The translations under genes and the position numbers were made by a program. From contig QPGO01000074.1 of NCBI GenBank assembly GCA_008632985.1, positions 310,001 to 374,000 on the forward strand: DNA of 64,000 bases. The letters run 5' to 3'. The first letter of the stretch is position 1, and each line of letters begins with the position of its first letter. The notes beneath the pieces are model-generated. The model did no database searches. It saw only the letters and a list, made by a program, of their open reading frames with translations, and was not told the origin of the DNA. Origin of the DNA: Psammoneis japonica (lineage: Eukaryota). Below are positions 1-61,296 of the stretch, piece by piece.

Positions 1-2907
1 GTCCGTATAAAGTACCTCGTGCGTACGAAGCTACGCTACGTAAAGAAGTAGAACGCCTAGTACGTATTGGTGTTCTCAAACGCGTTAACCGATCCCAATG
101 GGCAGCTCCATCATTTATCATACCGAAGAAAGATTTAACGGTACGTTTTATTAATGATTTGAGAGAGCTGAATAAACGGATCAAGCGATTGCCTTATGCG
201 ATTCCTCATATCCAAGACATGCTACTTGAGCTCGAAGGCTTTATGTGGGCTACATCACTGCATTTAAATGTCGGCTGTTATCACATCCGATTGGATGCTG
301 ACAGCAAGAAGCTCTGCACGCTCATCTTCCCGTGGGGCAAGTATGAGATGCAGGCATTGCCCATGGGATCATGCAATTCGCCAGACATTTTCCAAGAACG
401 CATGTCAGGCTCATTTGAAGATCTGTCGTTCGCTCGAACGCACTTAGATGACCTTCTCGTCGTGACGAAAGGCACCTGTGAAGATCACCTCAACAAACTT
501 GAAGAAGTTTCATTGAGGGTCCAGAAAGCAGGACTAAAAGTTAACGCAACTAAATCTCACTTCTGTCAAACCCAATTAGAGTGCTTGGGTCATCTGGCCA
601 ACAGAGACGGAATGCGACCAATGCCCAATGAAGTCGACGCCATTGAGCAAATCGCGACCCCAGCCAATGAACGTGACCTGCGCTCATTTGTTGGCATGGT
701 GAACTGCTGCCGCGACACGTGGATTAGACTTTCTGAAGTCTTGGCTTCGCTGACACGACTCGCAAGCGAGACTGTCAAGTGGAAGTGGACGTCCATTGAA
801 GACGAGGCGTTCCAAACCGTCAAACGGGTGACATCGGACAATGTTTCATTGTCACATCCTGATTTTAACAAACCCTTTGAGATGCATGCCGATGCCTCTA
901 AATGTCAATTGGGAGCAGTTGCATCCCAAGACAACAAACCTGTCGCCTTTTACAGCAGAAAGCTTGACAGTGCGCAATTAAATTGTGCAACAACGGAGAG
1001 AGAATTGCTCGCCATTGTGGAGACGTTGAAAGAATTTCGAACGATTCTCCTTGGTCATCGTGTGGTCACATGTGCTGATCATAAAAAATCTTACGACGCG
1101 TTCCAGGTCTAGGTGGGACCTCGCACTGCTGAACTGTGACATCGACAGTTTTTTGAATCTCGTCGTATGTCGCGCACGTAGAATTCTACGTGATTTTTTG
1201 ACATTTTGTGTCATTTTATGGTGCACTTGTTGAGCGATCCGTCCAAAAACTTTTGACATTTTTTGTCACAGCGCGATTCTATGATGTCTTAAGAATCGCG
1301 CAGGGCAGGTGCATTTGCAAAAACGTCGAGTGGCAAGAGGCACAATTGTGCCACAAACTTGGCCGTTTATTTGATGTTGAAGATGGTTGCATCCATTGAT
1401 TAAATTCTCGCACTGCGGAGCTCGCACGTAGAATTCTGCGGGCCCAATGTCACACGGAGTCCCACCTGGGGCTGGAACGCGTCTTACGTGCAAAGCACTC
1501 AATGCCGAGCGCGCCATGCGCTGGCGGTTGACATGCGAAGAATGCGGTCCCGAATTACGCTGTGTCAAGGGTGCCCACAACCTGGTCGCTGACGCTCTTG
1601 GTCGCCTTCGACCAGCACCCAGCTTGCCTTCCGAGGCCAATCTGGATGCAAAAGACACTCCATCGAGTCGTCCTTTGCATGAAGCTTTTAATGCAGACGC
1701 GCAAGATGAGACATCTCTGCCTGTTAGCTTCAAGCGCATTCAAAAAGCACAACAAAAGGACAAGCGCCTGCTCTCACGAGCTGAGGACTCGTCCGACTGC
1801 TCCATTTGCGCGCATCGTGGGGGAAGGTCATCACCACAGTTAATCTGTCATAAGGACAAAATCGCAGTGCCACAGTCATTGCAGGCTCCGCTAACTGAAT
1901 GGCGCCACGAGACACTGTGTCATCCAGGTGAGACACGTGCGGAAACATCCATTGCCCAGCACTTCCATTGGCCCAGTGTGAGGTCTACGGTGCATTCTAC
2001 ATGCGTCAAGTGCGATCGATGCCAGAAGACAAAACGCCAAACGCAGTGTCATGGGAAGCCACCAGAAAAGGTCGCAGAGACAATTCCATGGGAGACTCCA
2101 TGCACAGATGTGACAGGGCCACACAAAATTCAAAGATGCGGAAAGGACACTTTGCAATTGTAGGCAGTCACAATGATTGACCCAGCAACCGGGTGGTTCG
2201 AGATTAAAGAAGTGTCTGCGAAATGCGCAGACGTCGCAGCAAACGTCGTGGAACAAACGTGGCCATGCAGATGTCCGTGGCCAACCCAGGTGGTTTGTGA
2301 CCGTGGGACAGAATTTGTGGCAGAATTTAGCCAGATGATTAAAAATGACCATGGGATTTTGAAGAAACCCACAAGCAAACGGAATCCACAGGCGAATGCC
2401 ACAGTGGAACGTGTGCACCAGACACTTGGTGACATGGTGCGTTCCTTTTCAGTGCAGGACATGGAGCTGGACAAAGATGACCCATGGAGTGGCATCCTCT
2501 CCGCAGCAGCCTTCGCTGTCAGAGCTGTGGTGCATGCGACCACACATGCAAGTCCTGTGCAATTGGTCTTCGGACGTGATGTGGTCCCATCTGTTGCCCA
2601 TCGTGCCAAGTGGAAGCACATGGAAACCAGAAAGCAGAAGCTTGTCCACTTAAACAACAAGCGTGAAAACCAGAAACGCAAGGAGAACCAATGCACCGCA
2701 GGGCAATTGGTGCTTGTCAAACAGGAACAATCCTCTAAATGCGGTTCTGACAGCTGTGCAGGACCCACCAGAGTTGTCCGTGTGCATGACAACGGCACGT
2801 TGCGTGTCCAGAACGGAGCGCTGATGGGTGCGCACAATCTGCGGCAGATTGCACCCTGTCACCAGCAAGATGTCCTGTCACTTGACGGCCCTGATCATGG
2901 GGGAGTG
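1..2907 (+). mobile_element. Ty3/gypsy LTR retrotransposon pol (RT-RNase H-integrase), 5'-truncated by the window edge, degenerate and interrupted by a MITE
   Basis: Frame from nt 3 reads PYKVP...WAAPSFIIPKKD..VRFINDLRELNK, then RT motifs (HLDD for YLDD at 441-452), RNase H (DASK.QLGAV, ERELLAIVE), H2C2 zinc finger (HETLCHPG...CDRCQK) and integrase core (MIDPATGWFEI, DRGTEF, NPQANATVERVHQ). Order RT-RH-IN is that of gypsy. In-frame TAG at 2161; purine tract GGGGGAGTG at 2899-2907. Confidence 0.95.
1096..1482. mobile_element. 387-bp non-autonomous TIR element (MITE) inserted in the gypsy RNase H
   Basis: About 24-bp TIRs (ACGCGTTCCAGgtCtAGGTGGGAC vs reverse complement of right end ACGCGTTCCAGccCcAGGTGGGAC); 6-bp direct repeat CTTACG at 1090-1095 and 1483-1488. 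Removing it rejoins DHK-NLT-CK of RNase H (allowing for one extra A in the A-run at 1083-1088). Confidence 0.9.
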
Positions 2908-3285
2908 TGCAGCATGCCTCGCTGCTGGACAACACAGCGAGACCGTGCATGAGCCTCTTGCACGTGGCAACGCAGCATTGTCAACACGCACCTGGGAAGC
3001 ACGACCACAGGAGGGCGTGGCTCCAGGTCTCAGGCAATTCCAGAAGGATGCCAAGAGAGCATCCGTGTGAAGCACACTGGCCCGTCATCTGGCCCACGAT
3101 GGCAGCGTGATTCCACATGATGACATCACTCGTGCATGGCGCGTGATGGCGTGATTCGCACGATCCACAATGCGAACGCACGATCGATTTGATGCGATCC
3201 AAATGCGAACGAACAGGGATTTGGCAAGATTCCCCATTCACATGATCCCATTTTCTCTACTCTAAACTAGCTCATAAGTTTCACA
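2908..3285 (+). repeat. Putative 3' LTR of the gypsy element
   Basis: Starts TG directly after the polypurine tract. The right end (..TTTCACA at 3285) is a guess because the 5' LTR lies outside the window. Confidence 0.4.
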
Positions 3286-3339
3286 ATGACAAAGTCGTGA
3301 CACATCTTCTTTTTCAGCGCCCAGCACATGCATGGGGCA

Positions 3340-3774
3340 ATGCATCAAGAAGCAAAGAAAGAAGTCAACAAGTTGTGTGACAAAATCGGTGGCAAGAACC
3401 AAGACAAATTTGGACCCAATGGCAAACTGCAATCACTCAGCCAGGAGTGTCCTTCTGTCAAGGCAGGCAAGTGTGTGCACGAAGTTTGTCTGTTTGGGAA
3501 AGCTGGCCAAAAAGATCATGGTGATGAGCTCGGCAGCGGAGCCGACTTTGATGAAGATGGAAAATGGACGAAGAGACTGGTGAATGCATCACAACCTGGA
3601 GAGGTGGCACCAAGTGCTGGAATGGACTGCAGTGATCATCAACTGTTCATGTTGCTTGTGGTGTTGGAACACCAGTCCCATCTGCAGAGGAACCCGACTT
3701 GTCGATGTGTGCTCGAGATGGAGACTCAAATTGCTTGTGGTGATGAAGATTGCAAAAAGCGATTTGGTCTGTGA
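3340..3774 (+). pseudogene. Degenerate copy of the glucosidase II beta subunit (PRKCSH-like) C-terminal MRH domain
   Basis: FGPNG.L.SL..EC.SV.AGKCVHEVCLFGKA.QK (for KYVYEVC) and, in a shifted frame, GGTKCWNGLQ*SSTVHVACG...EEP, then CRCVLEMETQIAC (for CRYVLEM). Contains frameshifts and a TGA stop at 3635. Confidence 0.75.
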
Positions 3775-4119
3775 AGAGTTGGTTTGTATGGGATTAGATG
3801 ATTCAACACAAATTTAGACCATCAGGCTAGCACCAAATGCAAGACCCTAGCCAGCCGACGACAAAAGCTGCTAGCTAGCCCAGGTGATGGAGATTTTTGA
3901 AAATGGCAAAAAGTGGTTTCGAATTCTGTTCTGCGTCAGCATTACGTCGGCAACTTGAGCCTTTATAAATATATTTCTTTGTGTCTGTTTAAAATGATAA
4001 TGTTTGCACTCCGTACAAGTCCTACAGAATCACACGTAACGGAAATCCACACAGAGAACTCCACTCCACATCAAAAAACAAAAAAGGGCAAAAAGCCTCT
4101 TGGCAGGCGGATTGCAGCC

Positions 4120-6512: not shown

Positions 6513-6611
6513 CAATAGAATCATTTTTGATACCAGGTAACTGATGTGACACAACAAACTGATTTAAGTCCTGGAAAGGAGGTAAGACCGAGGGTTTTCG
6601 CTGCAAGCTTG

Positions 6612-18820: not shown

Positions 18821-21179
18821 CATTAGAAACATCCTGCGGGGGAATAAATAGACTCTTCCTACTATCTAGTGCACACCGTTGGCTTTTGGCGCGAACCAGC
18901 AATTCGTTTTGCCACAAGATTGATCATTTCCACGTTGGATAACTTCTACTAACTACGGTAGGGCCATAGTCTCTATATCGATTGTTGATTGCTGCTGTTC
19001 TGTTAGTCCAAACTCAAAGTGTGTGCGCCACTCTTTGCGCCAAGTGAGTGAGCTGACATGACTCATTGTGATGTGCTGGGGCTGTGCTGTGCAGCCTTCG
19101 AGACAGAAGCAGCATGGTCCTCAGCGTTGGCTGTGCTGTTTGACATGATGATGTTCTCTGCTGGAGAGGGGCTGCCCCAGTTTTTGTGCACACCACATGC
19201 ATGAGATCGGTGCTGAACTCAAATTCTGGTGCCTGGCCATCTTCTTGTAATTTTCCTGATTTTGCCAGGTTGCTGACTTTGATCTTTGCTCCTTTGACAT
19301 CTTCCACACTGCAGCCTTCTGCTTTTCCCCATCTTCTCAATGATGTGAGCAACAGTCAGTGCATCAGCTGGACCAACAACAAGCCCAGCTTTTCAGATGC
19401 CATCCACCACACACTGAAGCTGCTCCACATCAGTGGAGCATGTCACAGCTTGCTGAACATGCTCTGTGCTGCTGCTCAAAACTGCCGCTTGCCCCCTCAA
19501 AACAAAGCAGGAGTCAGCTTCTTCTGCTTTGCACTCCCCAGCTCAACCCCCAGCAAAGCTTTGAGCACTGAGGCTCCTCTTGTTCTGCCACCACATCAGT
19601 CTTGGGCTTTGCACTGACTACAGTGCCACTGTTGATGATGATCATGATGGCATGCAAGGTGGCACACATTGCCAATGAAGCAAGTTGGTCTTGGCATTCA
19701 TCATCACTGGCCAGGAAGATGGGCACCAAACTCACAACATGTTGCAAGGCTGAGAAATGTTTGAACCATGGTGAACAACAAGATCAAAAGTGCACCTCAA
19801 ACTCATTGAGAATGCCAGGGGCAGTTCAGTGCACAAACCTTGTCAACTGCAAAGTTGCCCATTTTGCAGCTGCTCTGTGTCCTGGGTTCACAGCAATGCC
19901 AACAAACATCAGAAGAAAAGTGCCCAGCCCAATGCATGGGAAAATGCACACAGAGACAAGAGCAACAGCAACATGTGTGACAGCTGCAGAGTGTGTCCAA
20001 TGGTGAGCAATTTATGCCAGGAGTGCTGCTGCTGTTGAATGAAATTTTGGGAGCAGCGTGCACTGGACAATGAGACTGACAGGAGTGGTGCTGCAAAACA
20101 AAATTTTTGGGGCACATGCGGTGCCAAAAGGTGGCCACAAAATTGTCAATTGGTGCTCCTTTTTTTCTGCAACATTTTTGCACAAGGTGGAGGACAATGG
20201 CAACAGGAAAGCCCAGCAGGAGAAATTGGCTGCCTCAAACAACTCATGTGGTGTGATCACAGAAACACTTGCCCAGATGTGCAAAGTTGGCTCTTGCAGC
20301 TTCACAATGGCTTAAATCCCATGCAGAGGGCAAAGAAACAAAGAGCAAAGGTTCAGGAAAGAGGGGGTTGTTGAAGCTGTCTTGTGATCAATGGATGATG
20401 CTCAGTGACAGCCAATGGCTTTGCATGTGTGGCACCTGAGGACACTGTCAACAAATTTTCATCAGTGGCCACAAGACCCATGCACCAAAAATGGATGTGC
20501 CTGAAATTTGGAGCTTGCGCTTTCCACACAACTGCAATCACATCTTGTGCCCTGCCATGTTGCATGTCTCTGCACCATGCAGAGATCACAGATTTTCACT
20601 TCTGCTTCATTCAGCATTGGGCATTGGGTGTTGGCACAGCACACTGGGCACTGGAGTTCCTTTTGCACAGGTTGAAAGTGGAGCTGACAACCATTGAACA
20701 GGAAAAAGTCACACCAACAATCTGATTGAGAAACATGACTTGTTTGACATTGCAATTTGTTTTTGGGTTTGCAGCGTGTGTGGTGGCATCATTCAGATTC
20801 ATGGCATTTGTGTTGCACCAGAATTCTTTCATGCAATCTCAGCCAAACAGGAATCATGATTGCCCTTTCCTCTCCAAGACCCACCACACTGCCATCACTT
20901 TGCACCACACAAATTGATGGTGGGACTCATGTTTGGTGCAGCTGCCTTCTCCCACCCGACTCTCCCCAGAACACTCATCAAGAACACCCACGCATGTCAT
21001 GACATCTTTGTTGGAAAGCACCTGTTGATTAATTCAACACAGTGCATCCAATGCAGCTGCCAATTTTGCATTTTCATCCATGTTTTCCAAGCTGCTGTCT
21101 TTCCTGCAAGTCCATGTGTGCTTCTGTTTGGAAGATGAGGATGACAGACAGGACGAGGAGAAAAGATCAAGAGAGGCCA

Positions 21180-22260
21180 TTGCAACTCTGGCAAACAGAG
21201 AAATTCACGTGGAATCATTTTGTTCATCAACTGCTTTCCACAAAATGTGACAAAGTGGACTTTGCTGCTGCGAGTCTAGCCAAATCACCTGTTGTTGTTG
21301 TTGCAGACTCCGGCTGCTCTTCCTTGAGTGACTTGATTGCATCCCACAGTGCCAGTGGCAAAATCTTGCCACTGGCAGGCAGACTTTGCCACAACATTGA
21401 CAAAAGTGTGATCGTTTTCCTTCTCCCACCCCATGGAATGATTCCTGATTCCTGCTTTCTTCTTCATCATTGTCTTGGAGTCATTTTTTCCACTGCCATT
21501 GCAAGTGGCGCTGGCATCCTTCAACATGCAACTCACATGGCCCAACTCATTTGCAGAGATCCAAAATTGTTGAAGAGCAACTGGCCACTTTTTTGCCCAG
21601 CGCAGCTCTTGATGTGGAAATCACAAGCACTCAGTGAGAGCTTCTGGCACCCAACTCCATTGATGTTTGTGTCAGAAACATCACGGAGCTTGTTGGCACC
21701 AATGGTGCTGCTCAGAAGCTTCCAGAGCAAAAGAAGCTCAACTCTTCCTTGGCAACATTTCTTTGCACCATTGCTTTGCAAATGACAAGAAAGCACTGGA
21801 GTGACTCAAGAACCATCTCCAGCTGGCATCTTCTGTTGCAGAGATGATGCATGCTGAAAAAGCTGAGTCTGAAAAGAAGAAGTGTGCAGAAGAAGCGGAG
21901 CACCAAATTTTGCACCTGGAGGCTTCAAGAAAGATTGCGGCAAAGAATGGTGTGATCGACAAGTCGATCACCAAAAAAGACCTTTGTGCCATTCTGCTTG
22001 TTGATCACAAATTATTTTTTTGTGAATGAAAGCAAGCACAAGAAAAAGGATGTTTTGGTGCAGAAGCATTACAATGTGATGATTTGATTGGATGGCGGGA
22101 GCAACCGATCTGGATGATGCTGCAACCCAACCAGTGCAGAAGATCCTGCCAAGTGTGAGCAAGAGTTGAGCCAACAAGGGCATCATCTGATGCTCCTTTA
22201 CAATGAAGATTGATGGGTGTAAAAATGGTCTAGCCTGGCAGTGGCACAAAATGGTCCAGT
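21180..22260 (+). mobile_element. Degenerate DDE (pogo/Tc1-like) transposase C-terminal region
   Basis: Reads ALDVEIT..Q*ELLAP...GNI......ND.K.LE*LK..LQLASSVAE...ITKKDLCAILL, which resembles my recollection of diatom DDE_1-associated transposase tails; no catalytic triad visible. Confidence 0.35.
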
Positions 22261-22532
22261 CCAGTTAATGTGTGAATGCAAAGCCAATCCAATCAGTTTC
22301 AGCAGTCATCTGCCAGCAGCTGGCAGTGGCATCATGATGGCTCACCACACTTGGGTTGCGACAATTGTTCAGAGCTTGGACCTTGCAGGCTTGATGTGAG
22401 CTTGACAGTCTCTGGGTCTTCACATTTGTGCCAGGTCTTGTTTTGGGATTGATGACTCTGCTGCATCCAAAGGACAAGTGCGCACGTGCATTGTTGGCCA
22501 TGGGCCAAAGCTGGGTTGGTTTGGCTGGCCGG

Positions 22533-22562
22533 TGCATGCATGCATGCATGCATGCATGCATG
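22533..22562. repeat. (TGCA)7 microsatellite
   Basis: Seven perfect TGCA units plus TG. Confidence 0.95.
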
Positions 22563-22751
22563 TTGGGCATCAACCATCTGCATGTCATCAGGGGACAGAC
22601 AGGACGGACAGGAGTGTGGCTTGTGGTGTGTCACCGGTGGTTGTGCGCGCTTTTTTGCACAGTGTTTGGTTGGCCCACATGGGCTGGGTGGGCAGGTCCG
22701 GTGCCGGTGCAGTGGGCAATTTTTTTGGGTCAGCAGTGTTTCCTGAATGTG

Positions 22752-22850
22752 CATTTTGGTCAGACCAAATTGGCATTTTGGTCGAACCAAAATGCTTTTG
22801 TCGACCAAATTGCCACACAGACCAAATCAATTTGGTTGACCAAATTGACA
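22752..22850. repeat. Cluster of TTTGGTC(G)ACCAAA-like palindromic motifs, probably TE subterminal repeats
   Basis: TTTTGGTCAGACCAAA, TTTTGGTCGAACCAAAA, TTTTGTCGACCAAA, TTTGGTTGACCAAA. Confidence 0.7.
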
Positions 22851-25505
22851 TTTTTGAAATCTTGGCCAAATTCATTTCATGCACATTTCTGCACAAACAA
22901 CACTGACGCAGCTTCTACAAAATTTGTGCGGTGTGTCAACATGCACGTTTTCCAATGGAAGATTCCCGCTGAAAGTGCGCCAAATCCCCCCCCCGAGCAT
23001 CAAATTTGGGAAACACTGGTTGGTGACTGTTTGAATTGATGGTGAGTGAAGCAAGCCTCAGTGCCCAAAAGCAACCCAGGTGTTAAATCTTGAGTTTGTT
23101 GAAAGCACCACAACATCATTGCACAGCAGAACAGCAGTTGCACAGCAGCACAGCAGTCATCAACCATGGCAGCTTGGGTGCAAGTGGCAGTGCACAACAA
23201 CAACATTGACCCCGTTTCTTTTTTCATTCTTGACAACATTTTCACAATCTGTCTGACAAGCTTGGTCATGTTTTGTGTCAATGAGAATTGTGGATGTGTG
23301 GTTTTGCCAAAAAATTGATTGTGTGATTCAAGACAGGTCAGCACTGTTTCAATTGTCAATGGTGCTTTCGCCAATTTTCTCACTTCTTTTTTGTGTTTCA
23401 TTGATCTTTGTTTGGCACAGAAAATTTAAGAGCATGGAGCCTTTTTGTGGTGATCTGCAATCTGCCACTTTTGGGAAGAGCAGCATTGCCATGGGCACAC
23501 ATGATTGGTGAGTTGGGGAACAAGGCATCATGTGATGCAATGCTCTGATGGAAACAGAGGGGGCACTTGTGGCAGAAAGGCAGATGGCTGTGGGAGGAAG
23601 TGACCTGCGGGAGGAGGGGGTGGAATCATTGCAAGCAGGGACATCCTGCTGGCTGCAACAGTCACATGGCATCAACCAATTCCTTGGCAGCATGTCTGGG
23701 CAAGCTTCCTCCAGCTGCACTTTGTTGGCAACTCCCGGCAAGTGGGGGAGAGGGAGTGCGCTGTCATTGGTCACTCTTGTCCTCTCCAGCCTCTTGATTC
23801 TGCCACCTTGCCGGTGATGCTCTGCAGATGCAGCAGCTGGAGCCAGTTGATGAGAAAATGCACAAGGCCCTGCCTCATTGTGACAAACAACCTGCAAGCT
23901 CACTCTTGTCTGACAGAACTTGACAAACCATGCATTGCCTTGTTGGCGCCGTGCCCCACCGCATCAAGATTTGTCATCATCATCAACAAAAGCACACAAG
24001 AAGGCTGCTTGGTCAGATTGTCCACTTTTTGAAGACTGCAGCAGACCTTGCCTGGAACACACTCCCACAATCTGCCCTTTTTCTGTGCTTGCTGTGGCTG
24101 AGGCACCAGAAATGATTCAACTCACTTGCAGTGTCTGTTCAAATGACATGTCTCCATTCAAAATTCAGCTTTGTGCGCCAATGCATGGGATTTTTCATGG
24201 AACGACAAAAACATTGAAAGTGTGGACAATGCCACAGTCAACAACCCACATTTTGCACAACAAAGCAGAAACTGAGATTGCTGGCATTTACTTTTTTCCT
24301 GCTCTTGTCGCAAGTGCTGTGCACCAAATGTGATGAATTGCTGAACAATTGTGCAACTCGCGTGCCAGAAGGGTGGCCATTGCTTTGGGCACAAAATTCA
24401 AGCTTTGCACATGCAGAGACCACAGAAAATGCACCAGCATTTGAGAATGTCCGATCTGTGTAGATCACATCGCACAGCACCACAGAGGTCATTCGATGAT
24501 GTCACTGGGATGACTCACACGACTGCAATGAGATTTCAACACCACATGCTCTGCGCCGGTGTTGGAACAGACATCTGTGCAAAGGGAGAGTGTTGCTTTG
24601 GGCAATAAAATTTGACCTTTGGGCATGTGAATCACACAATTGTTTGGCAACTCACAGCAACTTGAGTGTGGCCATCCAGAGCCAGACAGATCTCACCATC
24701 AACCAACAAGTCCGGAAAGCAACAATCCGTCAGAGACATCACTGCAGCTGGCATTGCTCGCCCATGTGGTGAGCCACTGGTGGAGCTGAGCATTGTTTGT
24801 GATTCAAAAGCTCACATCAAATGGAGCTGACAACTGCAGAGAAGGAGGCAAAGATTCCATCGAGGCTTCAAATGGGGCTTTCTCTGGGGCTTCCCCACTT
24901 GCCTTGAAAGAAACTCTTTCAACTTCCCATGAGTGATGGCAATCGAGGGCCGGCCCATCCAGCACCTTTCCTGGTGCCACCATTGCTGCCATGTTTGTCA
25001 GCCATGGTGAAGAGTGTGGCTGCAATCGGGACATTGTCGTGTGCTGTGTTTCGTTGGCCTTTTCTCTTCTCCAATTTGGGTGTGATGGACATGACAAGCA
25101 ATGCACTTTCTGGAGATTGGCCATCCACAAAAGAGAAGAAATTTGTCATTGCTATTTTTCTGTCTAGAGCTCTAGAAAACCAGCGCAGCATCGCATCATC
25201 GTACAGCCAGGTCATCCCGAGGATGCCCTGAGTAACATCCGTTGGCAAGGGTTGTGCGAACACGAACCACCAACTCTAGCTGTTGACTCCACGAAAAGCT
25301 TGCCGTGCAGTGCGGTGCTGTACGTACGGCGGTTACGTACTTGTAGCCCTACGTACCGTCGGTCCAGACGGCACGGACGTCTTCAGGGCGGGACGGACGG
25401 GACAGATAAAACTTGCATCTATGCAGACCACCGAGTGCGTGGTCAATGATTGTTCGAATATAATCTCACCAACACCTACCAACAGCATTAAATGGATAAT
25501 ATTTT

Positions 25506-29878: not shown

Positions 29879-32800
29879 CGTGCGTGTACCAGGCGAAGCG
29901 ATTGTAAATCAGATTGCAGATCGTTCGCAGTTGTTCAATCGCGAAGTCCGATGCTCGCCACTCACGAGTCGAAAAACGATTCTCGAAAAAATGAGGGTCG
30001 AGCAAGACATCGCAAGACACGAAACAATTATAAGAACATATGCCCAGTTTTTGATATATGTATTCAATGTTGTATACAAATCATAAATATGAAGTTCGGT
30101 TTTCGCAATGAGCTGTTAAATAGGGCTATAGATATAATGTTATCTTTGTGAAAAACTTAACGAATTTTGACGCGACTTTCCCTCGGATGCGAAGTAAATA
30201 CATATGAATACAGTAAGTGCGGGCGGGAACCGAACAGCGTCTTGACACTTTTTGATCCTGGGACAAGTTTGGTGGAATGAGCGCGGGAAACCGGTTGATA
30301 AATCACCTCTCTTGAGCAATGTGGAAACGGGTTAGAAGGCACGCTTTCCATGTGCCGGTGACATCATAAAAGGTGCGGAGGTGTGAGGACACAGGGACCA
30401 ACATCTTTTTTTGCAACAGGCAGACAATTCATCTGTGCTGGGGTGCACAGCAAATGTGGCTCAGCTGACAATTTTTTGCAAGAAGGGGGGTGCCACAGAA
30501 GGAGGCGCGCTGCACTGGCAACTCAAGCAGGCACAATTTGGCCTGCAGAAAAAGCACAATAATGCTGCAAAGCAGAGTTGTTGCTCTCTCTGTGCGCCTC
30601 CCAACTGCCAGCTGCTGACACCACCACTCTGCTGCTTTGAAAAGTCGCCCCCGGCTGCAGGCCCACCGCGAGTTTTGCACACATGTGCTCCTCGAAAAAG
30701 CCTCTCTTTTCTTTGTGCAGCACTTTGCATTGCAGCTGAACTTGCACAAGCCACAATGCACACAATCTTGGTGCCCTGAAAGAAGTTTTTTGGTGTCAGG
30801 AACAAACTGATCAAAGCAATTCTGGGGCTGTTCGCCAGCAGAACGAGGCTTCAGATGTCAGCCACACCTGTGAAGGGCATCAGCCGCCACTGCACTTGAC
30901 TTCACAAAGTGCTGCACTGTGTGGCTCTCATGGAATTGACTGATGTTGATTGGCACTTTTGACCCAGTGTGCAGCCAAGAGAGCAAAGAGATCCCTTCTT
31001 TTCCTCTTGCAAGAGCTGGCGCAACAGCAGCCCAAAGAGCAATCCTTTCTGAGCCAGCCTTCATGGTTGTTTGGCTGGTTGGTTTGTTGCTTTTGTCTTG
31101 CATTGGTTGTCATGGTTTGTGATCAGTTGCCATCTCTGTGACCCAATCACAGTTGTTTTCTTCTGCTGCTTTGTGCTTTGTTCAGCTTTTTTGCCTCTGA
31201 GCGGCGCTGTTTTGGTCACGCCACTTCAGGTCAATGCAATGTCACACTGTTGCCTGCAACTGATTGTCAAAAGTTTGACATCTTTGCTGTGTTTGTTGCA
31301 CCAACAGTTTGGTGTGATCCAGAATCAGTGAAATTTTTGGCGAGGAAGTGCGCCCCAGTTGCTTCTTCACATCGCCGGCTCTTTGCTCTGCCTGAGCCCA
31401 TGGCTTTGTGCACATTTTGCTGAAATGAGTGGCTGTGTCTGGCTGTCTTGTTCAACAACTGTGTGCATTCCAACAAACAAAAGTGGCAGTCAATTCATCA
31501 CCAAAACACCTTTTGATCAGCATCAAACCAAATGTCATCAACTGTCAAATGAAGCACTTGATGAGAGCAGAGTGGGGAGGATTGAAATGGCTGCACAGCG
31601 CACTGAGGAGGTTGTGCGCTGCTTGTGCTCTGCTCACTGTTCTTTGTTGCTGCTGCAAACCATGGCTGTGCAGTTGCTTGGCATCCCAGCACAGCACACA
31701 AAAGAACATCCGCCTCAACAAGAAACCAGTGATGCAATCAAAAGCTGGTGGCAACTTGTTCCTCACATCCTTCTGGTGTTGAGAAGGCACTCATGACCAG
31801 CAGAGAGGTGTGCAGAACATGCACAAAACTTGTTGATTGCTTGGCTCCATTTCCCTGTGAGCAGCTGTGCAAGCTTCTTTGAGAATGAAGAGCACCGTCA
31901 TTTTCCATGGACACAGACAAAGCTGCAGCAGTTTGAGCACAAGCAGGAGTTTCCATTTTTCCTTTTTTTCACCAAAAAGGTGTGCTTTCTCTTTTGTCTC
32001 TCCTCCTTCTTTTTGGCTGCTTTCTGGGAGAGAGCTGGCTTTTGCAGCAGTGCAAACCAAATGTGCACACAAAAAGAAACAACCTCCACAGGAAAGAGCA
32101 CATTTGAAAAGAGGCAAAAACATCTTGTTGTCAATCACTTTGAGCTTGGGCTGCTCATGATCAAACAGAAACAAAAACACTCTTGGTTTGTGTGATTTTT
32201 CTCTCTTCAGGAGGCAAAGCTGCAGAAAAAAAGGGAGCTTTGGGTCCAAGGAATTGTTGAAAGTGGGCATGAGATGGAGGAGAAGGGCATGCATGTGAGA
32301 GCTTTTGTGGTGGTGAGCTTTTATGAGTGCAGCAAGAGAGGCAGGCACAGGGTCAAGCAAGAGAAAGGTGGCATTTCCACAATGCTGACAACTTGATGCA
32401 AGATGTCCTGCAAGTCCATGTGCAAAGTGAGCAGGCATGCCGAGGGGGGGGGATGTGAGGAGTGGCTCACCTGGTGTGTTGGGGGCAAGGCACCACCGTG
32501 TGTGGTGTGCCAGCAAAAGGAGCACACCAGCTGGGTGATCAAGAAAGGTGTGGCCACACCAGCAGCAGTGGGGCACAGTGCCCCATGTGTTGGAGCACTG
32601 GGGCGGGGGTCAGATGCAGTTTTCACAGGACAGACAGACAAAGTTGCAGCAAAAGATGTGCTGACAATTGCAGACAATGTGGCAAATTTGTGCTTGCAAC
32701 TCAGATTGAGTTGTGGGTCTTGTGCTCACGTTTTAGCTTCTGCACCTGGTTGACATGGTGGCAACAGCCATGTGTTTGCAAGCCACATGGTGAGTTTGGA

Positions 32801-32887
32801 GATGGTGAAACCAAATGCATCTGCCAGTCAGCAAGCTGTGAAGCTCCAACACAGAAGCTGGAAACTCATGTGAGTGGTGTTGTTCAA

Positions 32888-32980
32888 GGGCTGGGATGTC
32901 AACAGAAATCCATGCAATGAGGGCTGGGAAGTCAACAGGAATCCAAAAGAAAAGGCTGGGAAGTCAACAGGAATCCAAAG
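32888..32980 (+). repeat. Three tandem copies of an about 32-bp unit GGCTGGGAAGTCAACAGGAATCCA
   Basis: Seen directly, upstream of the gag relic. Confidence 0.85.
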
Positions 32981-33249
32981 ACATGTGTCATGTCAGCAGA
33001 TTGTGGCAAAAGAGCCGGCTGGACAAGGGTGAAGGAACAATCTCTGGAGGGCCTTGCTGTTGAAGAAGCTGTTGAGGGTCTGTGCTGAAAGAGGGTGTGA
33101 CAAGGTTGTGGCGGGGTTGATGAGACCCCAAGTGTGTGGCTGTTGGCAAGCCATGAAACTCCAAAATGAGTCCCTGAAAACTGTTTGGAAGCACAAAAGA
33201 TTTGAAGGAGCGGGTGCATGACACCATTGCCAAGTTGGGATGACAGACA

Positions 33250-34140
33250 GACAGTCAGACGCCAACCACAAAGAAGATCAGCATGTCAGCAGAATGTTTG
33301 GGCTGGAGATGCAGGCACTGACATCTCTGAGGCAGGAGAGCATGCCAAAAGAGCTTGCTCATTCATTGGGAGATGCAGTGCATTGGAGAAGGACAAGGCA
33401 ATCTGGGGCAAGCAATGCAATCACTGTGTGCTGGAACAGAACATGATCTTCAAGACACAGAATGTGGAGGCATTGGGCACAATTGTGGGGCAATGTGCAA
33501 AGGCCATTTGTCAGAAGATTGAAAGAGTGAAAGAGTTCACCAGAGTTGTGAAGGAGTGGGGTGTGGCAGCTCTGCTGGACATTCTCAAATTGATCTTGTT
33601 TGATGCAAATGAGAACACAAACCCACATGATGTCCATGCAGCAAAGGCTTGGAAGCAGTTGGCACTCATTTGTCAAGATGAAGGAGAGGTGCTTCAAGGT
33701 TGTTGCAATCAACTTGCAAGCATGGTTGAAGTGGTGGAGATGTCCTGTGGCAGGATCATCCCCCAGAAGAAATTGCTGAGAAAGAAGATGGGCTCAGCAA
33801 GGAAGCTGATGACACCCAGAACAAAGAAAAGAGCCAGTTGTCAGCAGTGGTGCACCAATGGAAGGCACCAAAGAATGTTGGCATGTCTTGAAAGACCTGC
33901 ATGATTGGCAACTCACATTGGGGGTTGACATTTGTCCCAGTTCAGCCCAGGAGCACTGCAGGTGTTGGACAACTGCAGGGCCAACAAGAGACCTGATGGT
34001 GCAAGTTTTGCACAGAACAAAAAGCAGCAGATGAAATGCTGGAGGTGCAATGAGGTTGGACATGTGAGGAAGAATTTTCCTGACAATGATCATTCATTGG
34101 TGGAGTTGGATGATGTGGACCATGGGAATCAGTGGAATGG
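33250..34140 (+). mobile_element. Degenerate LTR-retrotransposon gag (probably Ty1/copia type) with zinc knuckle
   Basis: IVGQCAKAICQKIE...ALLDILK...AWKQLALICQ..GEVLQGCCNQ (for YY)...VEVVE; knuckle CWRCNEVGHVRKNFP (CX2CX4HX4C with the last Cys lost). Confidence 0.7.
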
Positions 34141-35159
34141 CCAATGATGTGGCATTGGGTGGCATGGACTGCAAGTGCCATCCTTCTGTGCTTGATGTGC
34201 ATGAGGCCAATCAATTGACGGCATTGTCTTTCTTGAAGCAGAGCACTTGTTTCTGTTGTTTGTGGCTGCAAATTGACACTTTGTTTTTTGTGCAAGAAAT
34301 GTGCTCACTTGCAAACTGGGCTCTTTCTCATCATCATGCAGGTTCTCAGTCCACACAGGACCTTGGCATTGTTCACTGGCATCTGTGTGAGACATGGTTG
34401 GAGCTCAGCTCTGGCATTTGAGGCAAGCACAGTCTGGGATTTCATTTTGGTTGGGCATCTCAATTTTGTGAGTTTTTTGAAGATTTCTGGATGGCTGGCT
34501 GCATGGATTTCTTGCTGCTTGGGCTGATTTGAGTGCACTGAAGATGCTTCATTGGCAACAAAATGTTTTGAAGGCAAGACAATGCAAGAGCATCTTGCTT
34601 TTGTTTGGCTTGCAGTCTTGCCCAATGGTGGCTGCACTTCATGCAGAATTTGGCAAAAAGGTTTCAGTTTTGCCCTGCTGTTTGTCAAAAGACATGTGGC
34701 AATCAAGCTGCATCACAAGCACACTCGGACCATCAACTTGAGCTCAGCTTTGATGTCACTGCACATGGAAATGATGCCACAGCAACAACAAAGTGGGCAA
34801 TGTCTTTGACAGCAATGGCATGACATGCGCCATTGTGCCGTGCAACAGCATCATGACTGCACTTCTGATTTGGCATTTTCAGCCACACAAGTGCATGTGC
34901 TACAACTTGCCCCAAGTGTGGAAATCTCAGTGTCAAAAAAGTGACTTTTTCTTTTGACACAGCTGCCATGTGGTGACACTTGTTGTGAAATCATCGCAGT
35001 TGCTTGCCCGTTTGACATCTGCTGCAGTTGAACAAGGTGTCATTGATTCAGCAATCAATGCAAGAATCTGTTTCAACCTTTGTTTTCAAAAATCATTTGC
35101 GAACTTGTTGAGAAAGTTGTTGATGCTTCATTTTTTTGTGTTTCTGCATCCATTGTTGG

Positions 35160-35475
35160 CTGTGTCATTTGCACTTTGCGGGCACAGCTTCATGCACTGT
35201 CTTTTGTGGCTTGTGTGGTTTGTTTGTTGCATCAAGAAGAGTTCCTGAATGTTGTGTTGTTGTGGCAAAAGTCATTGTGTCACAACAAAAGAACAGCTTT
35301 GTGTGCCCTGTTGTTGTTTTTGATTGCATGCTGTTGGTTGCATTGTTTGTGCTTTGCAGGGCACAAACTTTGCCCACTGTCTTTCACGGCATGCATTGTT
35401 TGTTTGTTGCATTGAGAAGAGCACCTGGATGTTGCGTTGTTGTGGCAAGAAGTGTTGTTTTCACAACAAAAAGTC
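35160..35475 (+). repeat. Diverged direct repeat, period about 180 bp
   Basis: TGTTTGTTGCATcaAGAAGAG (35221) vs TGTTTGTTGCATtgAGAAGAG (35401) plus flanking similarity. Confidence 0.8.
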
Positions 35476-36236
35476 ATTTTTGCCATGCTTCTTTCATTTT
35501 TGTTGTGCGTGCAGCTGACCACATTTTTGTTTTCATTGTTGCTTGGGACAGGTTGGAGCAGAGGATGCACATTTGCTGTGAGTGAGTGACCACATTGAAG
35601 TCAAACTCCGCCAGCCAAAGCAATGTGTTGTCAACAGGAAAATGACATGAATGCCAAGAAAGCAACAGCAAAGCACTCCAAGGAACATGGCACCACCACC
35701 TGAAGATGACAGTTCCTCAAGTTCCTTGGGCAGAGATGGGGCTGTTCTAAAAGAATGTTGGCATCCTTGAGAAGCTCTTCTGCAAGTGAAAAACATGAAA
35801 GAGGTGGAGTGCAGTGCAGCCAACCTTCTTTCATCAGACATTGATCTGAGACTTTGTTTGAGGGAAAGTCCACAGCTGGTGTGTTAAAGTTCACATCACC
35901 CTGTGTTTTCCAAGGTGCCTCACTCATGCGTGGTGGCTGCAAAGCACACGATTGTTGTGCAGAGGCTCAATCTCAACAAAAAAAGCACACAGCCCATCTG
36001 TGTCCCCCCCCTGCCCTGCCCTGCCCTGGTGCCCCACCCAGCAGACCAGAGACAGATGGGTGAGATGACAGTCAGGGTTTGGGGCCAACTGCTTTCAAAA
36101 TGATCAAATTTGCAAACAGTTTTTGCACAAAAAACGACACCCAAGAAGGACTTTTGAAGGCCTCGGGGCTGAACAACAGCCATTTTTGGGTGTCACAGTT
36201 GTCTTGTCTTTCATTGTTGTTCATCTCAATTCATGT

Positions 36237-36501
36237 GTGTTGTGTCAGCCATTTTCATTGAGAATCATCTGTGCCATGGATTTTTAGAATTTGTGCTTGC
36301 TTTTGGTGTTCACAAAAACTCACCCCCTTGTTTTCAGCCTGACAGGCAATTGTGGTCCAAGGCCAGTGTTGTGTCAGCCATTTTCATTGAGAATCATCTG
36401 TGCCATGGATTTTTAGAATTTGTGCTTGCTTTTTGGTGTTCACAAAACAACTCACCCCCCTTGTTTTCAAGCCTGACAAGGGCAATCATGGTCCAAGCCC
36501 A
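36237..36501 (+). repeat. Tandem duplication, unit about 129-135 bp
   Basis: Near-identical copies start at 36237 and 36366 (GTGTTGTGTCAGCCATTTTCATTGAGAATCATC...). Confidence 0.95.
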
Positions 36502-36749
36502 GATTTCTGCTGTGCAATTAAAAACCAATGTCTCAAGTCTGCAGTGACAATGTTTGAGTGTGTGCTGTCTCTCACAGTCATCTGCAGCTGGAACCTGAGA
36601 ACCCTCTTGGAGCCCTCTCTTTTGTGCACCTGAAATGACAAAGGATCTTGCTTGACACCAATGACGTGCCCTTCACTCTTTTCCTGCCACCAAGCTTCTT
36701 CCCCAGACAAAGCCTCCTTTCTTGTTGCAGCTCCAGACAAACCACACAA

Positions 36750-37900
36750 ACCCAAAATTGTCTCTGTGGTCAAAGTTGTTTTCAACTGGGTTTTCTTTGG
36801 CTGCTCTCCACTGGAGCTTGCAGTCCATCAGTGGCTGTTGCGCTGTTGCACAGAACTGGGAGCTGGGCCACCTGCATCCTCTGGCTGACCCTTTTTGTTT
36901 TCTTGTCAATGCTGCCTGTCATCACAGAGACAGGAAAGTCAATGACACATGTCTCTTTCCTTGCACATGAGACAAACCTCCTCATGCTTTTTTCTCATGC
37001 CTTGAGACAGTGGGCTCAACTTGTGAAACACAGGCTGACCTTGCCCAACAACCTTCAATCCTTGTGTGAACCCCAAATCATCCAAAAAAGTCTTTCTTTG
37101 GCTCAACTCTCTCAAAAACAGCCAGCAGCACCACTGGCTCCCTTGTTCTCTGCATCCACATTGAGGCTCATCATTGGAGGGCAGCCATGACAAAGCTTGA
37201 GAAGTGGGTCCACATGGTGCCTTCTTGATTCATTTCCAGCTTGCTTGATGTGAGCATCTGGGCAGGCTGCAAGCACAAAATGTCATTTTGAGCAGCTCAT
37301 CTTGAAAATCCACATGCTCCCACCCGGTGCTCCATTTTTCCACTTGAGGTCACTTGCACAGATCACAGTGGCACAGCATGAGTTGGAGGTGGGAGATTTC
37401 AGCATGTTCCCTCTGGCCTTGTTGAAAATGCCATCCCTGGCAGCATCCCAGTCTAAGATTAGAGGCGATGGCACACGTTGCATCATTGGGGATGTTGCTT
37501 TCCTTTGGCCAAGTGTCACTTGGGCAAGAGACAATCACTCTCTCTTGTTGATTTTTTTGACATCATTTCCAGTCTCCAGCAGCCCCTCAAGTTGTTCATG
37601 AGCACAACAGAATCTCGCCCCACACCGGACCATCCTTGGGTTGACAGTTGCCTCTGAGAGTTCTGTGAAACAAGTCAACCAATGGCGCCATTGCCCACCT
37701 TTGGATCAGCAGTGATTGCAAGAAATTGCCAGCAAAAATGGCTGAGATGCCCCCACATTTTGAAGCACAGCTGTCATCCAATGAATCTTTCAATTTCTTG
37801 CTCAGCAGCTGCAGCACATGTTGCAATGCAAAAGACACCTCGTCAAGAATGAGCAGACAAGATGTTTTGCCCACTCTTCATGCTCCATGTCAGCCACATT
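36750..37900 (-). mobile_element. Degenerate PIF1-like helicase, probably a Helitron relic
   Basis: LLILDEVSF...L..L.K.L......CGGISAIFAGNFLQ matches PIF1 motifs II/III (LIIDEISM...YGG..IIF.GDF.QL); a weak KLQ motif lies downstream. Confidence 0.65.
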
Positions 37901-39269
37901 CTGTGAAAAGGGCACGTTGCACCACAGCTTGCTCAACCATTGATTGCAACAGCCAACAACCCAGTGATGACCAGCATGGTGCAATTTGTGAAAGGCACCC
38001 TGAGCTCTGAGCTCCTCTCAGAATTCACTCATGTGAGCAATGATGCTGTCAAGGACAGCACTCTTGCCAGAACCTTCCCTGCACCAGCAGCATGAAAACA
38101 ATGCAGCTTGCCTTCACCCTGAGCGCCAAGGCAAAAAGAGGAAAGGTGGCTTCCATGTTGGAGAAAAAGAAGCCTCCTTTTTGTGCTCAAAGAGCTGGTG
38201 CTTCAGTGGACAACATCGCTCAGCTTGCACTCACGGACAAAAGGAGAACAAGGCTCGTTTTTTCGGGTGCCTGAACGAGGACATGAGGAACAGATTGCTC
38301 ATTGATCAAGGCTTTCCACTTTCAGACATTGCCATGAGGGTCAGTTTTGACAATGACCAAGATCCGAGGGAAAACAAACAGCTTGTCAGGGCTTGTCTGA
38401 TTGTGGCAAATGAAAACACTGCCGAGTCATTCTTTGTCAGTTTGCAAAGAGTTGGGTGACAGATCACAATGACATCAAGCACAAGACAGTGTGTGTTGTT
38501 GTTGACGATGATAAAATGTGCAACACTGTGCATTCTCCACTGATTGTGCCAGCTCATTTATTTGTGGGCTGCAAGTGCACTGTTGTCAAGTTGATCGGAG
38601 GGGCGCAAGGGCGCGATGAAAGATGACGCCGACGAGACATTTTGCAACAATTTCGTGGATGTCGCGAGACAGAAGTGTTGGTTTGCTGGTGATGAACGTC
38701 CAAAGGACTCCCAACAACAATGTTTATATCCTTCTCTTTGAGATTGACAATGTGACGACAACCACATTGTTGGTTTCGATTGTGTTCTTGTCACTGTGGC
38801 TGTAAGACAACGAGATACAGTCGTCCAGCGAAGCGTTCAATCGCCAATCAAAGAGATCCAGACGATGAAGCAGGCAGGGGGAGACGACACAAACACCTTT
38901 TTCCGACTTTATTAAAACAACAACTACTTGTGTATGTCCATGAGTTTGTGTTTCAGTTTCCTGGTATCTTTGAGAAGGTAACCGGTGAGTGTGAGTGTAC
39001 CGGTAGTTGTTCTGCCTGAATTTGTTTCATATTATTTGAATCAAAATCTAACTCGCCATGCGTTCTCAAATTATAAAGTGGTACTCTTCCAAAGTAAACT
39101 GCCGGAAGGAGCATTCAGCGAGTCTGTTGCTCGTCAATCGCCTATGATAAGTTGAGCGCCAACAATGGCAGCAATACCAAGAAGCACCTCAGCCTTGGTA
39201 GCCTTTGCCGGTTGACGCGGGAATTCTGCATTGTCCTATCGTAATATATGACTCGCTTGAACGTGGCAA

Positions 39270-41839: not shown

Positions 41840-41949
41840 CAGCAGCTAGTAGCTAGAGTAGAGAGCTGGCTGGCTCTTAGAGAGAGCCTGCAAACCGGCA
41901 TTTTCTCAGGCAGGAAGTGCACCAGAAAGAACGAGCAAACCAAATCTTA

Positions 41950-44700: not shown

Positions 44701-44864
44701 CCAGCACCCGGATGTTTCCGAACACGTACTTGCTCTTCGTTGCGTGTGTTGCTGCTTTGGGCCGCTGACCGCTGAACGAACATGATGGACTCCTCTCGTC
44801 GGCTGACACCTCAGACGACGAAGATACGACGCAACAACAGCGTCTCCTACAAACAACATTCACC

Positions 44865-52799: not shown

Positions 52800-54350
52800 C
52801 AGCAATGTGCCATCGTGCCATGGCACAGCATGACGCATGTGTTGATTGGCCCGAGGACCCGGAGGATCGCGGCGTCCCGCGTGGACGGGAACGAAAATCT
52901 TGGAATCCCGGCCCGCCGCCGCAGTCGAAGCAGCTTTGTGACATCGACAACAATCTTCCTCTAAAAACGCAGTCTTCTGTCTCCAAACTTTTGATGCGCA
53001 TTGTTGATCTTTCACATGCTGGAAAGACTTGGTGGGGACAGAAAACTTCCTCTGCACTCTTGTTGTGGCTTGCCGCTTTTTTCTTTTCTTCCCGCGGCAG
53101 CAAAGCACAGTGAGAAACTCAGAAAACAAAAACCGTGCTCAAATCATGAAATGTTTGCCTGAGTTCAAGCTAAAAAAGCAGCAAACAACCACTCTTGATG
53201 GTCTTTGCAAAGGCAAAGCATGAGAACTCTTGTGGCATGTTTGTCAAGTCATGTGCACACGATGTGTTGAGTGCCTGGTTGGCTGGTGTGTGCCATTGAC
53301 TTTGGCAAAAATCAAGCAGCTGACTGTTTCAATTGGCTTGAAGCTTTTCTTTGGGAAAAAGCAAGAGTCACATAACACTGGGTGGGCACCAAGCACCAGC
53401 ACCAGTAAAAATCCAGCACAGCTGCAAGACAGGCTGCCCCCCACCAGTCAATCCTTGCCAGTCAGCAGCCGCCAGGGGCACAAACAAGAAATTGCAGGAG
53501 AAGCACAAAAGCAGCAAGGGCACAAAGTTGTGGCCCAACACCACCCATCATGTCAGCCAAGAGGAGTGCTGGGCATGTGAAACAGCTGTCCTCTGGTGGC
53601 AGCCATCCAAGGCAGCAGCGCATCTCTGGGGTCAGCATGTCACAACCAGCCATGCTGATTGTTGCATGACACACATGTTGGTTGTGTCAGCCAGTTGTTC
53701 TGTCTCACTGTGCACTTGAAGATGAGCTTGACTCATCAATTTTTCTCATCTCTCTGCACCCTTGAGCACAAAAACACAACACATCACATTGAACATCTGC
53801 TGGGAGTTGCCAGAAAAAGAGATGACTTGCGCTCCCACCCCACCCCTTTGTTGCATTTTTTCTGTGCCACAATCTCCTCTGAGTTGCTCATTGCAGCTGT
53901 GTCACACACTGTTGTGGCCCACATCTTGGTGCACTCAGCGCTGCTGAGCATGTCATCCTCAGCTCTGTCGTGCTGTGCTGCCTTCTGTGGCATCAGCATG
54001 TGTCTGGACAAGAGAGTGAACACACAGAAAGAGCAGCTCCCACTGAGCAGTGAAACATCTTCACACTGATGTTCATGCTGCAACCAGCCATCACATCTTG
54101 AACAAAATGATGTGTCGCACTAGAAGGGGTGCCATGGAAGGGCTGAGGCTGCCACAGAAGAGGATTGCAAGTCTTCACATGGCCTGTCTTCACATGGACA
54201 AGCCCCCCTCCTTTGGATGCACACACTGGTCTAACAAGGAATTGTTGTCTGCTGCAATTCGTTGCACCTGAGTGCCCCAATGCTCCTGTGTGGGTCAAAC
54301 CAACTGTGTGTCTGCAAAAGCCTGGATCCAATCAAATGTTGGATCCTCAA
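52800..54350. mobile_element. TpA-depleted degenerate block; CpG retained at the left edge
   Basis: Compositional signature only. Confidence 0.65.
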
Positions 54351-61010: not shown

Positions 61011-61296
61011 TCCTTTTTATAAGTTGTTGAAGCCCATGATGTAAATAAATGTGGAAGCGTTTTGTTTTGTTTTGTTTTGTGCGAGGTTGTGCTCTCACGG
61101 AATCCGGAATTCACCCTTTCAACCAAAATTGGTTGAAAACTCAACAACGACACTCCAATGCGCGGCAGTACGATTTCACCGTAGAATCTACGCCCACAAA
61201 ATCTTTGGGTCACCGCGCCGTACCAGTCTCTCGTACAAAGCTACGCATCGGTCATTCATCACTGCATCACAACACACAACAACACACTCACTCACC

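Follow-up and report, generated by a model that had tools for sequence, protein, structure and literature searches.

Introduction

Targeted point mutation of mobile DNA as a genome defence is, to our knowledge, known only from fungi, as repeat-induced point mutation (RIP), and only as a change of C to T. In Neurospora and other fungi, RIP converts C:G to T:A pairs at CpA, with enrichment of TpA and the creation of many stop codons. Here we describe a 64,000-nt stretch of the genome of the diatom Psammoneis japonica (GenBank assembly GCA_008632985.1, contig QPGO01000074.1, positions 310,001 to 374,000 of the forward strand; hereafter the window), at whose start the pol gene of a gypsy retrotransposon has been densely mutated from A:T to G:C at TpA. 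We put at roughly 0.6 the probability that this diatom has a mutator that works in situ on DNA at certain loci, changing A to G at TAY and then at CAY (Y, pyrimidine) on either strand.

The locus resembles RIP in its way of working, as an earlier note made from the sequence alone had supposed: dense transitions occupy mobile-element stretches with sharp edges, on both strands and copy by copy, so that copies differ in outcome at the same sites; adjacent unique DNA is affected too (here nt 3301–3774, counted from the start of the window); and a dinucleotide preference strongly skews composition. It differs from RIP in that A:T becomes G:C at TpA, so that TpA is destroyed rather than created by C:G to T:A changes at CpA, and in that stop codons, many in RIP, are not made here. 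Diatoms have DNMT4 proteins that are RID-related and whose function is not known, according to the excerpted text of PMC9998398.

APOBEC3 and ADAR enzymes likewise inactivate retroelement copies individually by clustered transitions. Theirs, however, are one-stranded (G to A or A to G on the coding strand), whereas the changes described here are symmetric, include non-retroelement DNA and follow another neighbour preference. A third comparison is with the tRNA deaminases TadA and ADAT2-ADAT3 and the TadA-derived editors, which change A to G by deaminating adenine; the editors are engineered, Cas9-guided laboratory enzymes. We know of no natural enzyme of the TadA/ADAT family that mutates genomic DNA, and of no enzyme described in any eukaryote that naturally carries out a motif-defined A:T to G:C rewriting of it.

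Results

Pfam places the reverse transcriptase (RT) and RNase H of the gypsy element at nt 3–1112 and its integrase at 1432–2952. The ratio of observed to expected (o/e) TA dinucleotides is 1.13 over nt 1–269 (CG, 1.50), 0.24 over nt 270–1090 and 0.20 over nt 1481–2900, where TG and CA stand at 1.75 and 1.52; throughout the mutated pol, TG and CA are raised to 1.3–1.75 and CG is near normal at 0.75–0.92. Read along the sequence, TA sites are frequent as far as nt 279 and few between 342 and 3275 (only four between 2900 and 3300); there is none at 3276–3786, and beginning at 3787 they are frequent once more. The hypermutation that the earlier note had assigned to nt 270–2900 is thus real, but its extent was too short: the tract reaches nt 3786, and five further blocks of the window were missed. 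Both strands are affected, as had been proposed, with 327 TG against 345 CA in the pol block. Although the YxDD box now reads HLDD, the pol retains reading frames of 369, 243 and 262 codons, with a single in-frame TAG (2161–2163) in the integrase part.

The mutation can be read codon by codon in the conserved motifs (YLDD, EYLG, NYY, IYTD, NYT and others), and all such readings listed in the earlier note proved valid when scored against up to 60 relatives. The CAC at nt 441 stands where 98% of 60 relatives have Tyr, the TGC at 582 where 97% have it, and the consecutive TGC codons at 705 and 708 where 92% and 98% do. ATG at 882 replaces Ile (93% of relatives) and GCC at 888 Thr (98%); TGT at 984 replaces Tyr (97%) and GCA at 987 Thr (98%); GCT at 1074 replaces a Thr found in 96%. 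Within the RT–RNase H part, Thr has become Ala where the preceding codon ends in T, and Ile has become Met. The integrase part shows Tyr to Cys at 1489 and at 1561, the latter a TGT where 33 of 34 relatives carry Tyr.

Alignment of the whole pol to 35–55 relatives from metagenome loci, with five TA-poor loci excluded, gave the same picture. Past nt 228, only 2 of 20 conserved Tyr columns are intact, the others having become Cys (TGY, ten), His (CAY, six), Trp (TGG, one) or Arg (CGC, one), compared with 255 of 308 other conserved columns intact (Fisher p = 2e-11). Every conserved Phe (13/13), Trp (10/10), Gly (22/22), Ala (19/19) and His (8/8) survives, and roughly half of the Ile, Val and Thr columns now hold another residue: Met (ATG), Thr (ACA), Ala (GCN) or Val. 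If TG or CA is put back to TA, the conserved residue reappears at 39 of the 71 replaced columns (p = 9e-13). Seven other context rules served as controls, three for A>G (after C, A or G) and four for C>T (before G, A, T or C), and each of them regains between 0 and 2. The proposals that departures from gypsy motifs are mostly A to G in TpA, and that the TA to TG/CA direction is mutational in origin, are therefore upheld.

Nucleotide-level comparison was possible among 78 metagenome loci encoding pol relatives (median TA o/e 0.75, CG 0.86), four of which are TA-poor: L047 (0.10), L022 (0.16), L023 (0.22) and L052 (0.35). L022, L023 and L047 share a family with the ordinary-looking L049 and L050, at 79–84% identity over about 1.4–1.5 kb, and mutated L023 and its unmutated sister L050 come from one metagenome. 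From L049 to L047, 7 of 79 TA sites are intact, 34 having become CA and 31 TG, against 1067 of 1418 intact for the remaining dinucleotides pooled (p = 1e-33). From L049 to L022, 12 of 84 TA sites are intact, with 28 changed to TG and 28 to CA; each non-TA dinucleotide is 52–92% intact in the comparisons with L049. A>G (73) and T>C (72) together make up 145 of the 238 changes from L049 to L047, which also include 20 C>T and 24 G>A.

With strands folded, the approximate rates of A>G per site in L022 and L047, respectively, are 0.49 and 0.69 at TAC, 0.53 and 0.62 at TAT, 0.24 and 0.19 at TAA, 0.17 and 0.25 at TAG, 0.21 and 0.30 at CAC, and 0.24 and 0.28 at CAT, with all other contexts at 0.05–0.16. 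The flanking bases set which strand is changed: YTAY went to TG 25 times and to CA 8 times, and RTAR (R, purine) to TG 3 times and to CA 23 times (p = 1e-6). The rule is A to G at 5'-TAY-3', with CAY second, on either strand. At sites mutated in both L022 and L047 the outcome differs at 16 of 47 and agrees at 31, an excess of agreement that the flank rule predicts.

The pol block of the window bears the same imprint. Relative to host density, survival of TA is 0–0.06 at RTAY, 0–0.23 in contexts with TAY on one strand (YTAY/RTAR), 0.16 at CTAG, 1.2 at CTAA/TTAG and 1.64 at TTAA. The ratio of TAY to TAR, which is 1.31 in host DNA, is 0.24 in the pol block, where TGY/TGR is raised. Among CpG contexts, RCGY is enriched (GCGC, 2.25 times host density) and YCGR depleted (CCGG, 0.15), with CGY/CGR at 1.46 against 0.96 in host DNA; conversion of CAY to CGY predicts just such an RCGY-rich, CGY-skewed CpG content.

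The gypsy pol is a member of a multi-copy family. We compared nt 1–20000 with contigs built from exact 31-letter words of a public run (X1), and 7,111 contigs match at a likeness of at least 85%. Summed word depth over nt 1–3335 is 12,687–94,064, against about 60 over genes (a summed depth is not a copy number), and 188 of 223 differing places are transitions. The letters of the window's own family in X1 were compared for 40 of 227 rows of differing letters. Among the matches listed, about five sites near 1060–1075 and 1486–1506 have gone the other way in other X1 copies. Ahead of the DH motif, at the Ile-Tyr-Thr of relatives, ACA TGT GCT in the window corresponds to ATG CAT GCT in another copy; directly 3' of an insertion described below, the window reads TGC ... 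GCA ... AAT GCC and another copy CAC ... GTG ... AAC A. At nt 1086–1091 the pol of the window has a run of six A where another X1 copy has five, and the frame is shifted between RNase H and integrase.

That insertion, at the RNase H/integrase junction, resembles a miniature inverted-repeat transposable element (MITE). It has a 6-nt target duplication (CTTACG, at 1090–1095 and 1483–1488) and 28-nt terminal inverted arms (1092–1119 and 1459–1486) that are 86% complementary, and one X1 contig preserves the empty site, running from 1087 straight to 1482. At 1283, 1350 and 1398 the window has a G within TG where most contigs of the MITE family, among the matches listed, have A. The MITE also carries the highest summed word depth of the compared stretch (up to 94,064), suggesting that its family is very abundant.

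Beyond the multi-copy part, the hypermutated tract extends a further 480 nt into a host-gene fragment that corresponds to the glucosidase II beta subunit's C-terminal domain (PRKCSH_1 is present in all eight scanned relatives). The fragment encodes no Tyr, where 77 relatives average 5.8, and its three conserved Tyr columns are all replaced, by TGT, CAC and TGT. It lies in a 10,155-nt X1 contig of word depth 59 that starts at nt 3310. The fragment is an orphan adjoining the retrotransposon remnant, and the TA-free tract stops about 12 nt 3' of its stop codon. It may be a collaterally damaged host gene fragment or a duplicated pseudogene. The repeat-targeting named in the earlier note is not demonstrated here, since the fragment and the start of a second TA-poor block (block A) are equally affected and lie in long contigs at the depth of neighbouring genes.

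Five such blocks (A–E) were located in 250-nt bins, with edges taken from the positions of TA (Table 1). Together with the 3.5-kb pol block they bring the affected share of the window to 38%. In blocks A–E, 21.1 kb contain 46 TA (2.2 per kb, where the other 39.4 kb of window DNA has 39.1) and 238 CG (11.3 per kb, where it has 55.3), so that about 95% of TA and 80% of CG have been lost; TA o/e across blocks is 0.00–0.24. The losses are balanced by gains: YR steps number 240.0 per kb in blocks A–E and 240.1 in host DNA, and the gain of 80.9 TG plus CA per kb equals the loss of 36.9 TA and 44.0 CG. Block edges are sharp at the 250-nt scale, and block E ends 28 nt before the coatomer-gamma frame (Adaptin_N / COP-gamma gene from 61045). 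A link between the mutation and transposon-derived blocks with sharp edges is likewise supported.

Table 1. Features of the hypermutated parts of the window, in window coordinates.
Feature	Position	Strand	Evidence
Unmutated 5' part of the gypsy RT remnant	1..227	+	RVT_1 match; 38/41 conserved columns intact
Hypermutated RT–RNase H part of pol	228..1095	+	TA o/e 0.24; Pfam RVT_1, RT_RNaseH, RT_RNaseH_2
MITE-like insertion (387 nt) within pol	1096..1482	.	Inverted arms and duplication
Hypermutated integrase part of pol	1483..2952	+	Integrase_H2C2 and rve matches; TA o/e 0.20
TA-poor multi-copy tail of the element	2953..3300	.	Many X1 contigs and high summed word depth to ~3335
Glucosidase II beta subunit C-terminal-domain fragment, hypermutated	3301..3774	+	93 relatives at E <= 0.001
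Block A, almost TA- and CG-free	19005..25152	.	19 TA, 73 CG in 6.1 kb; TG 712, CA 710
Block B, almost TA- and CG-free	30215..38511	.	11 TA, 65 CG in 8.05 kb; TG 947, CA 883
Block C, almost TA- and CG-free	41949..44727	.	3 TA, 42 CG in 2.7 kb; TG 298, CA 291
Block D, almost TA- and CG-free	52963..54232	.	5 TA, 11 CG in 1.25 kb; TG 137, CA 156
Block E, almost TA- and CG-free	58396..61017	.	5 TA, 26 CG in 2.55 kb; TG 287, CA 282

Loss of CpG, which is pronounced in blocks A–E, also occurs among the metagenome loci. From L033 to L046, 42 of 96 TA sites are intact (20 to CA, 17 to TG), and 37 of 107 CG sites (35 to TG, 21 to CA). Ordinary decay of 5-methylcytosine at CpG would account for the conversion of CG to TG/CA both there and in the blocks, but it cannot remove TpA, and the gypsy pol of the window loses TpA with its CpG nearly intact. 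Another gypsy family (L068–L070 and L073–L078) has a CG o/e of 0.09–0.47 and mostly retains TA (0.44–0.86), indicating that CpG loss and TA loss are separable.

Block A gave no credible Pfam match and contains no recognisable gene, and the 63 frames of at least 110 amino acids in the blocks likewise gave none (a lone match, at E = 0.0055, is below the cut-off). In a tblastn search, 134 long frames from the 78 gypsy loci matched the window at 3–1109 and 1483–2925 only and nowhere in blocks A–E, and a BLAST comparison of the window with itself revealed no further copy of any of the blocks. A weak PIF1-helicase-like stretch in block B (37599–37877, minus strand; E = 9.8e-5, below the curated Pfam cut-off) hints that this block may once have been a Helitron-type or PIF1-carrying element. 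Many frames of 110–272 codons in blocks A–E are free of Tyr and belong to no family; with TAA and TAG gone from these blocks, long empty reading frames result, in which gene callers would probably predict false proteins.

Elsewhere the window carries intron-poor nuclear genes typical of a photosynthetic eukaryote, which Pfam identifies as encoding monogalactosyldiacylglycerol synthase, a chlorophyll-binding protein, the 51-kDa subunit of complex I, Sel1 and MORN repeat proteins, mTERF and coatomer gamma. At 65–70% identity, the light-harvesting protein is closest, among named relatives, to fucoxanthin chlorophyll a/c proteins from Nitzschia, Cylindrotheca and other Bacillariaceae, which points to a host diatom of the raphid pennate type. 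Ten Sel1 repeats were matched in the gene at 40028–41383 (minus strand), whose units of about 108 nt (nt 39995–41176) are mutually 64–69% alike in DNA. A second run (X2), labelled 'DNA?', yields contigs restricted to gene bodies, as a transcript library would, and these jump 324 nt with GT..AG ends at 7233–7558, marking an intron of the gene at about 7–8 kb. X2 gives next to no cover over nt 1–3335 and zero over 19344–20000; we draw no conclusion from either.

Discussion

From the direction of the changes, their motif, their strand symmetry, their independence from copy to copy, the sharp edges and the effect on non-retroelement sequence, we infer a dedicated, targeted enzymatic process. Its loci would be transposon remnants together with whatever lies inside or directly beside them. 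There, a TA step would become TG by a change on the top strand and CA by a change on the bottom strand; RTAY, which carries two targets, would be lost first, and YTAR (TTAA, CTAA), which has none, would survive longest. Changes at CAY would yield new CpG, which in older blocks would later become TG or CA, most simply by ordinary 5-methylcytosine deamination, leaving TG/CA as the sink and end state. No sense codon can become a stop through an A:T to G:C change, so killing would be by missense (Tyr to Cys or His, the catalytic YxDD included), and long frames remain.

Several points weigh against this account. The junction between unmutated and mutated sequence, near nt 228–280, falls within a single RT and could reflect recombination between copies or an assembly join. 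Dependence on homology of the kind seen in RIP is unproven, with 3310–3786 and 19005–20000 both in long contigs at neighbouring-gene depth. The trinucleotide rates are approximate, L049 being a sister copy and not the true ancestor, and X1 lends limited support, as it may derive from the very sample that was assembled and has no recorded library type. That blocks A–E are transposon remnants is our reading of DNA in which recognisable transposon genes were not found. As for the enzyme, none was seen in the window, where no deaminase family is among the Pfam matches of the frames, and the match of the motif to that of an engineered editor is a resemblance and not an identification.

The alternatives that survive best are two, each unlikely to about the same degree. 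In one, the changes arise during retrotransposition, when a host deaminase would edit the RNA of the element, its single-stranded cDNA or both in the manner of APOBEC3 or ADAR, so that insertions arrive already hypermutated. The element is indeed a long terminal repeat retrotransposon of a multi-copy family, and differing outcomes at the same sites are what independently edited insertions would show. Yet known editing is one-stranded, and TG equals CA in every block (from L049 to L047, 31 against 34); moreover, the MITE within pol has TA to TG changes relative to most of its family, the glucosidase II beta fragment is equally affected in a contig at neighbouring-gene depth, and no retroelement homology was found in blocks A–E. 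Strand symmetry, the MITE and the fragment together argue instead for action on DNA in place rather than during reverse transcription.

In the other, the primary lesion would be on thymine: T in 5'-RTR-3' would be oxidised or otherwise modified in silenced chromatin, for example to 5-hydroxymethyl- or 5-formyluracil by a TET/JBP-type enzyme, and would mispair with G to give T to C. Since RTR is the complement of YAY, the attacked base of the A:T pair is indistinguishable, and 5-substituted uracils cause A:T to G:C transitions. An RTR preference is not known to us for any enzyme that modifies thymine, however, and the trinucleotide ranking agrees with that of an adenine deaminase acting on DNA, as reported in the excerpted text of PMC10879117.

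A slightly poorer prospect is that no dedicated system exists, the loss of TA being a passive, context-dependent bias (from translesion synthesis or biased mismatch repair, for example) built up over a long time in silent, methylated, late-replicating DNA. The most depleted blocks are also CpG-poor, as old methylated DNA would be, and host DNA already has a TA o/e of about 0.5–0.7. A loss of 18 of 20 Tyr columns beside 255 of 308 others intact nevertheless points to TA loss far faster than background decay, and the near-normal CpG of the pol, the sharp edges of the blocks and the presence of mutated L023 and unmutated L050 within one metagenome also tell against slow bias. Pol eta, one of the two enzymes suggested by the earlier note, has AA and TA (WA; W, A or T) both as hotspots and must be given up: AAN rates are not raised, at 0.06–0.15 against 0.49–0.69 for TAY, and it is CAY (0.21–0.30), not AAY, that comes second.

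A sequencing or assembly artefact, in which modified bases in repeats were miscalled and left unpolished, is very improbable. DNA of the sort found in the affected blocks tends to be methylated and difficult to polish, and the uncertain origin and library of X1 temper what that run can say. Nevertheless, 82% of sampled words of nt 1–10000 occur in X1, and its exact-word contigs reproduce nt 3310–13464 with 2 differing letters (word depth about 59–65) and the edge of block A at 19005, the latter in a 6,084-nt contig of word depth 65 that runs from 15750 past 20000 with 7 differing letters and one gap. In addition, 4 of 78 loci from unrelated metagenome assemblies have a TA o/e of 0.35 or less, three of which (L022, L023 and L047) were compared base by base with an unmutated sister copy, and a clean removal of TA and CG is not expected from a strand-symmetric miscall. 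The X1 contig over the block A edge and the same signature in separate metagenome assemblies thus make a long-read artefact unlikely.

The remaining candidates can be set aside briefly. GC-biased gene conversion has no TA specificity, and the GC content of the blocks (0.46–0.50) equals that of host DNA; adaptive TA avoidance by a live element does not fit the loss of conserved catalytic Tyr; RIP proper does not fit changes in which C:G to T:A is not dominant and TpA is destroyed; ADAR would give A to G on one strand, APOBEC3 would give plus-strand G to A where A>G and T>C dominate, and Pol eta predicts an AA hotspot that is lacking.

For a mutator acting on DNA in place, the most likely chemistry is adenine deamination by a TadA/ADAT-like deaminase, the other enzyme that had been suggested for this locus. 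According to the excerpted text of PMC10879117, A-to-G editing of DNA by a TadA-derived editor is highest at TAY and lowest at MAR (M, A or C), with TAT, TAC and CAT promoting it and CAG, AAG, CAA and AAA inhibiting it. The ranking of trinucleotides measured here agrees with that one, which makes such a deaminase the leading candidate; the agreement supports the suggestion as far as resemblance of motif goes.

The process would then be a RIP-type point-mutation defence with a chemistry for which we know of no natural enzyme. A bolder reading, which we offer tentatively and hold to be rather less probable than its opposite, is that diatoms defend their genomes with a natural DNA adenine base editor, which would be a system of a new kind. 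Derived from TadA/ADAT and aimed by chromatin state or homology, it would change TAY to TGY on both strands of transposons and their surroundings, kill them by missense and feed new CpGs to methylation, an opposite-chemistry counterpart of RIP in several benthic diatom lineages. Diatom transposons are methylated, according to the excerpted texts of PMC9998398 and PMC2806351. A full-text literature search, with subscription journals outside its scope, returned no account of TA to TG/CA mutation of mobile DNA in diatoms or any other organism, and the excerpted texts of PMC9998398, PMC5889660, PMC2873906 and PMC2806351 make no mention of such mutation of transposons.

A deaminase, should the mutator prove to be one, would be nature's equivalent of the laboratory adenine base editors and would offer a fresh supply of such enzymes. 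The signature is easily screened and hence directly testable across algal genomes. It also matters for annotation, as the destruction of TAA and TAG stops and of all Tyr codons produces long false frames and hides transposons from homology searches. For the evolution of diatom genomes, such a process would be a major force, and one that reaches neighbouring gene fragments as collateral damage.

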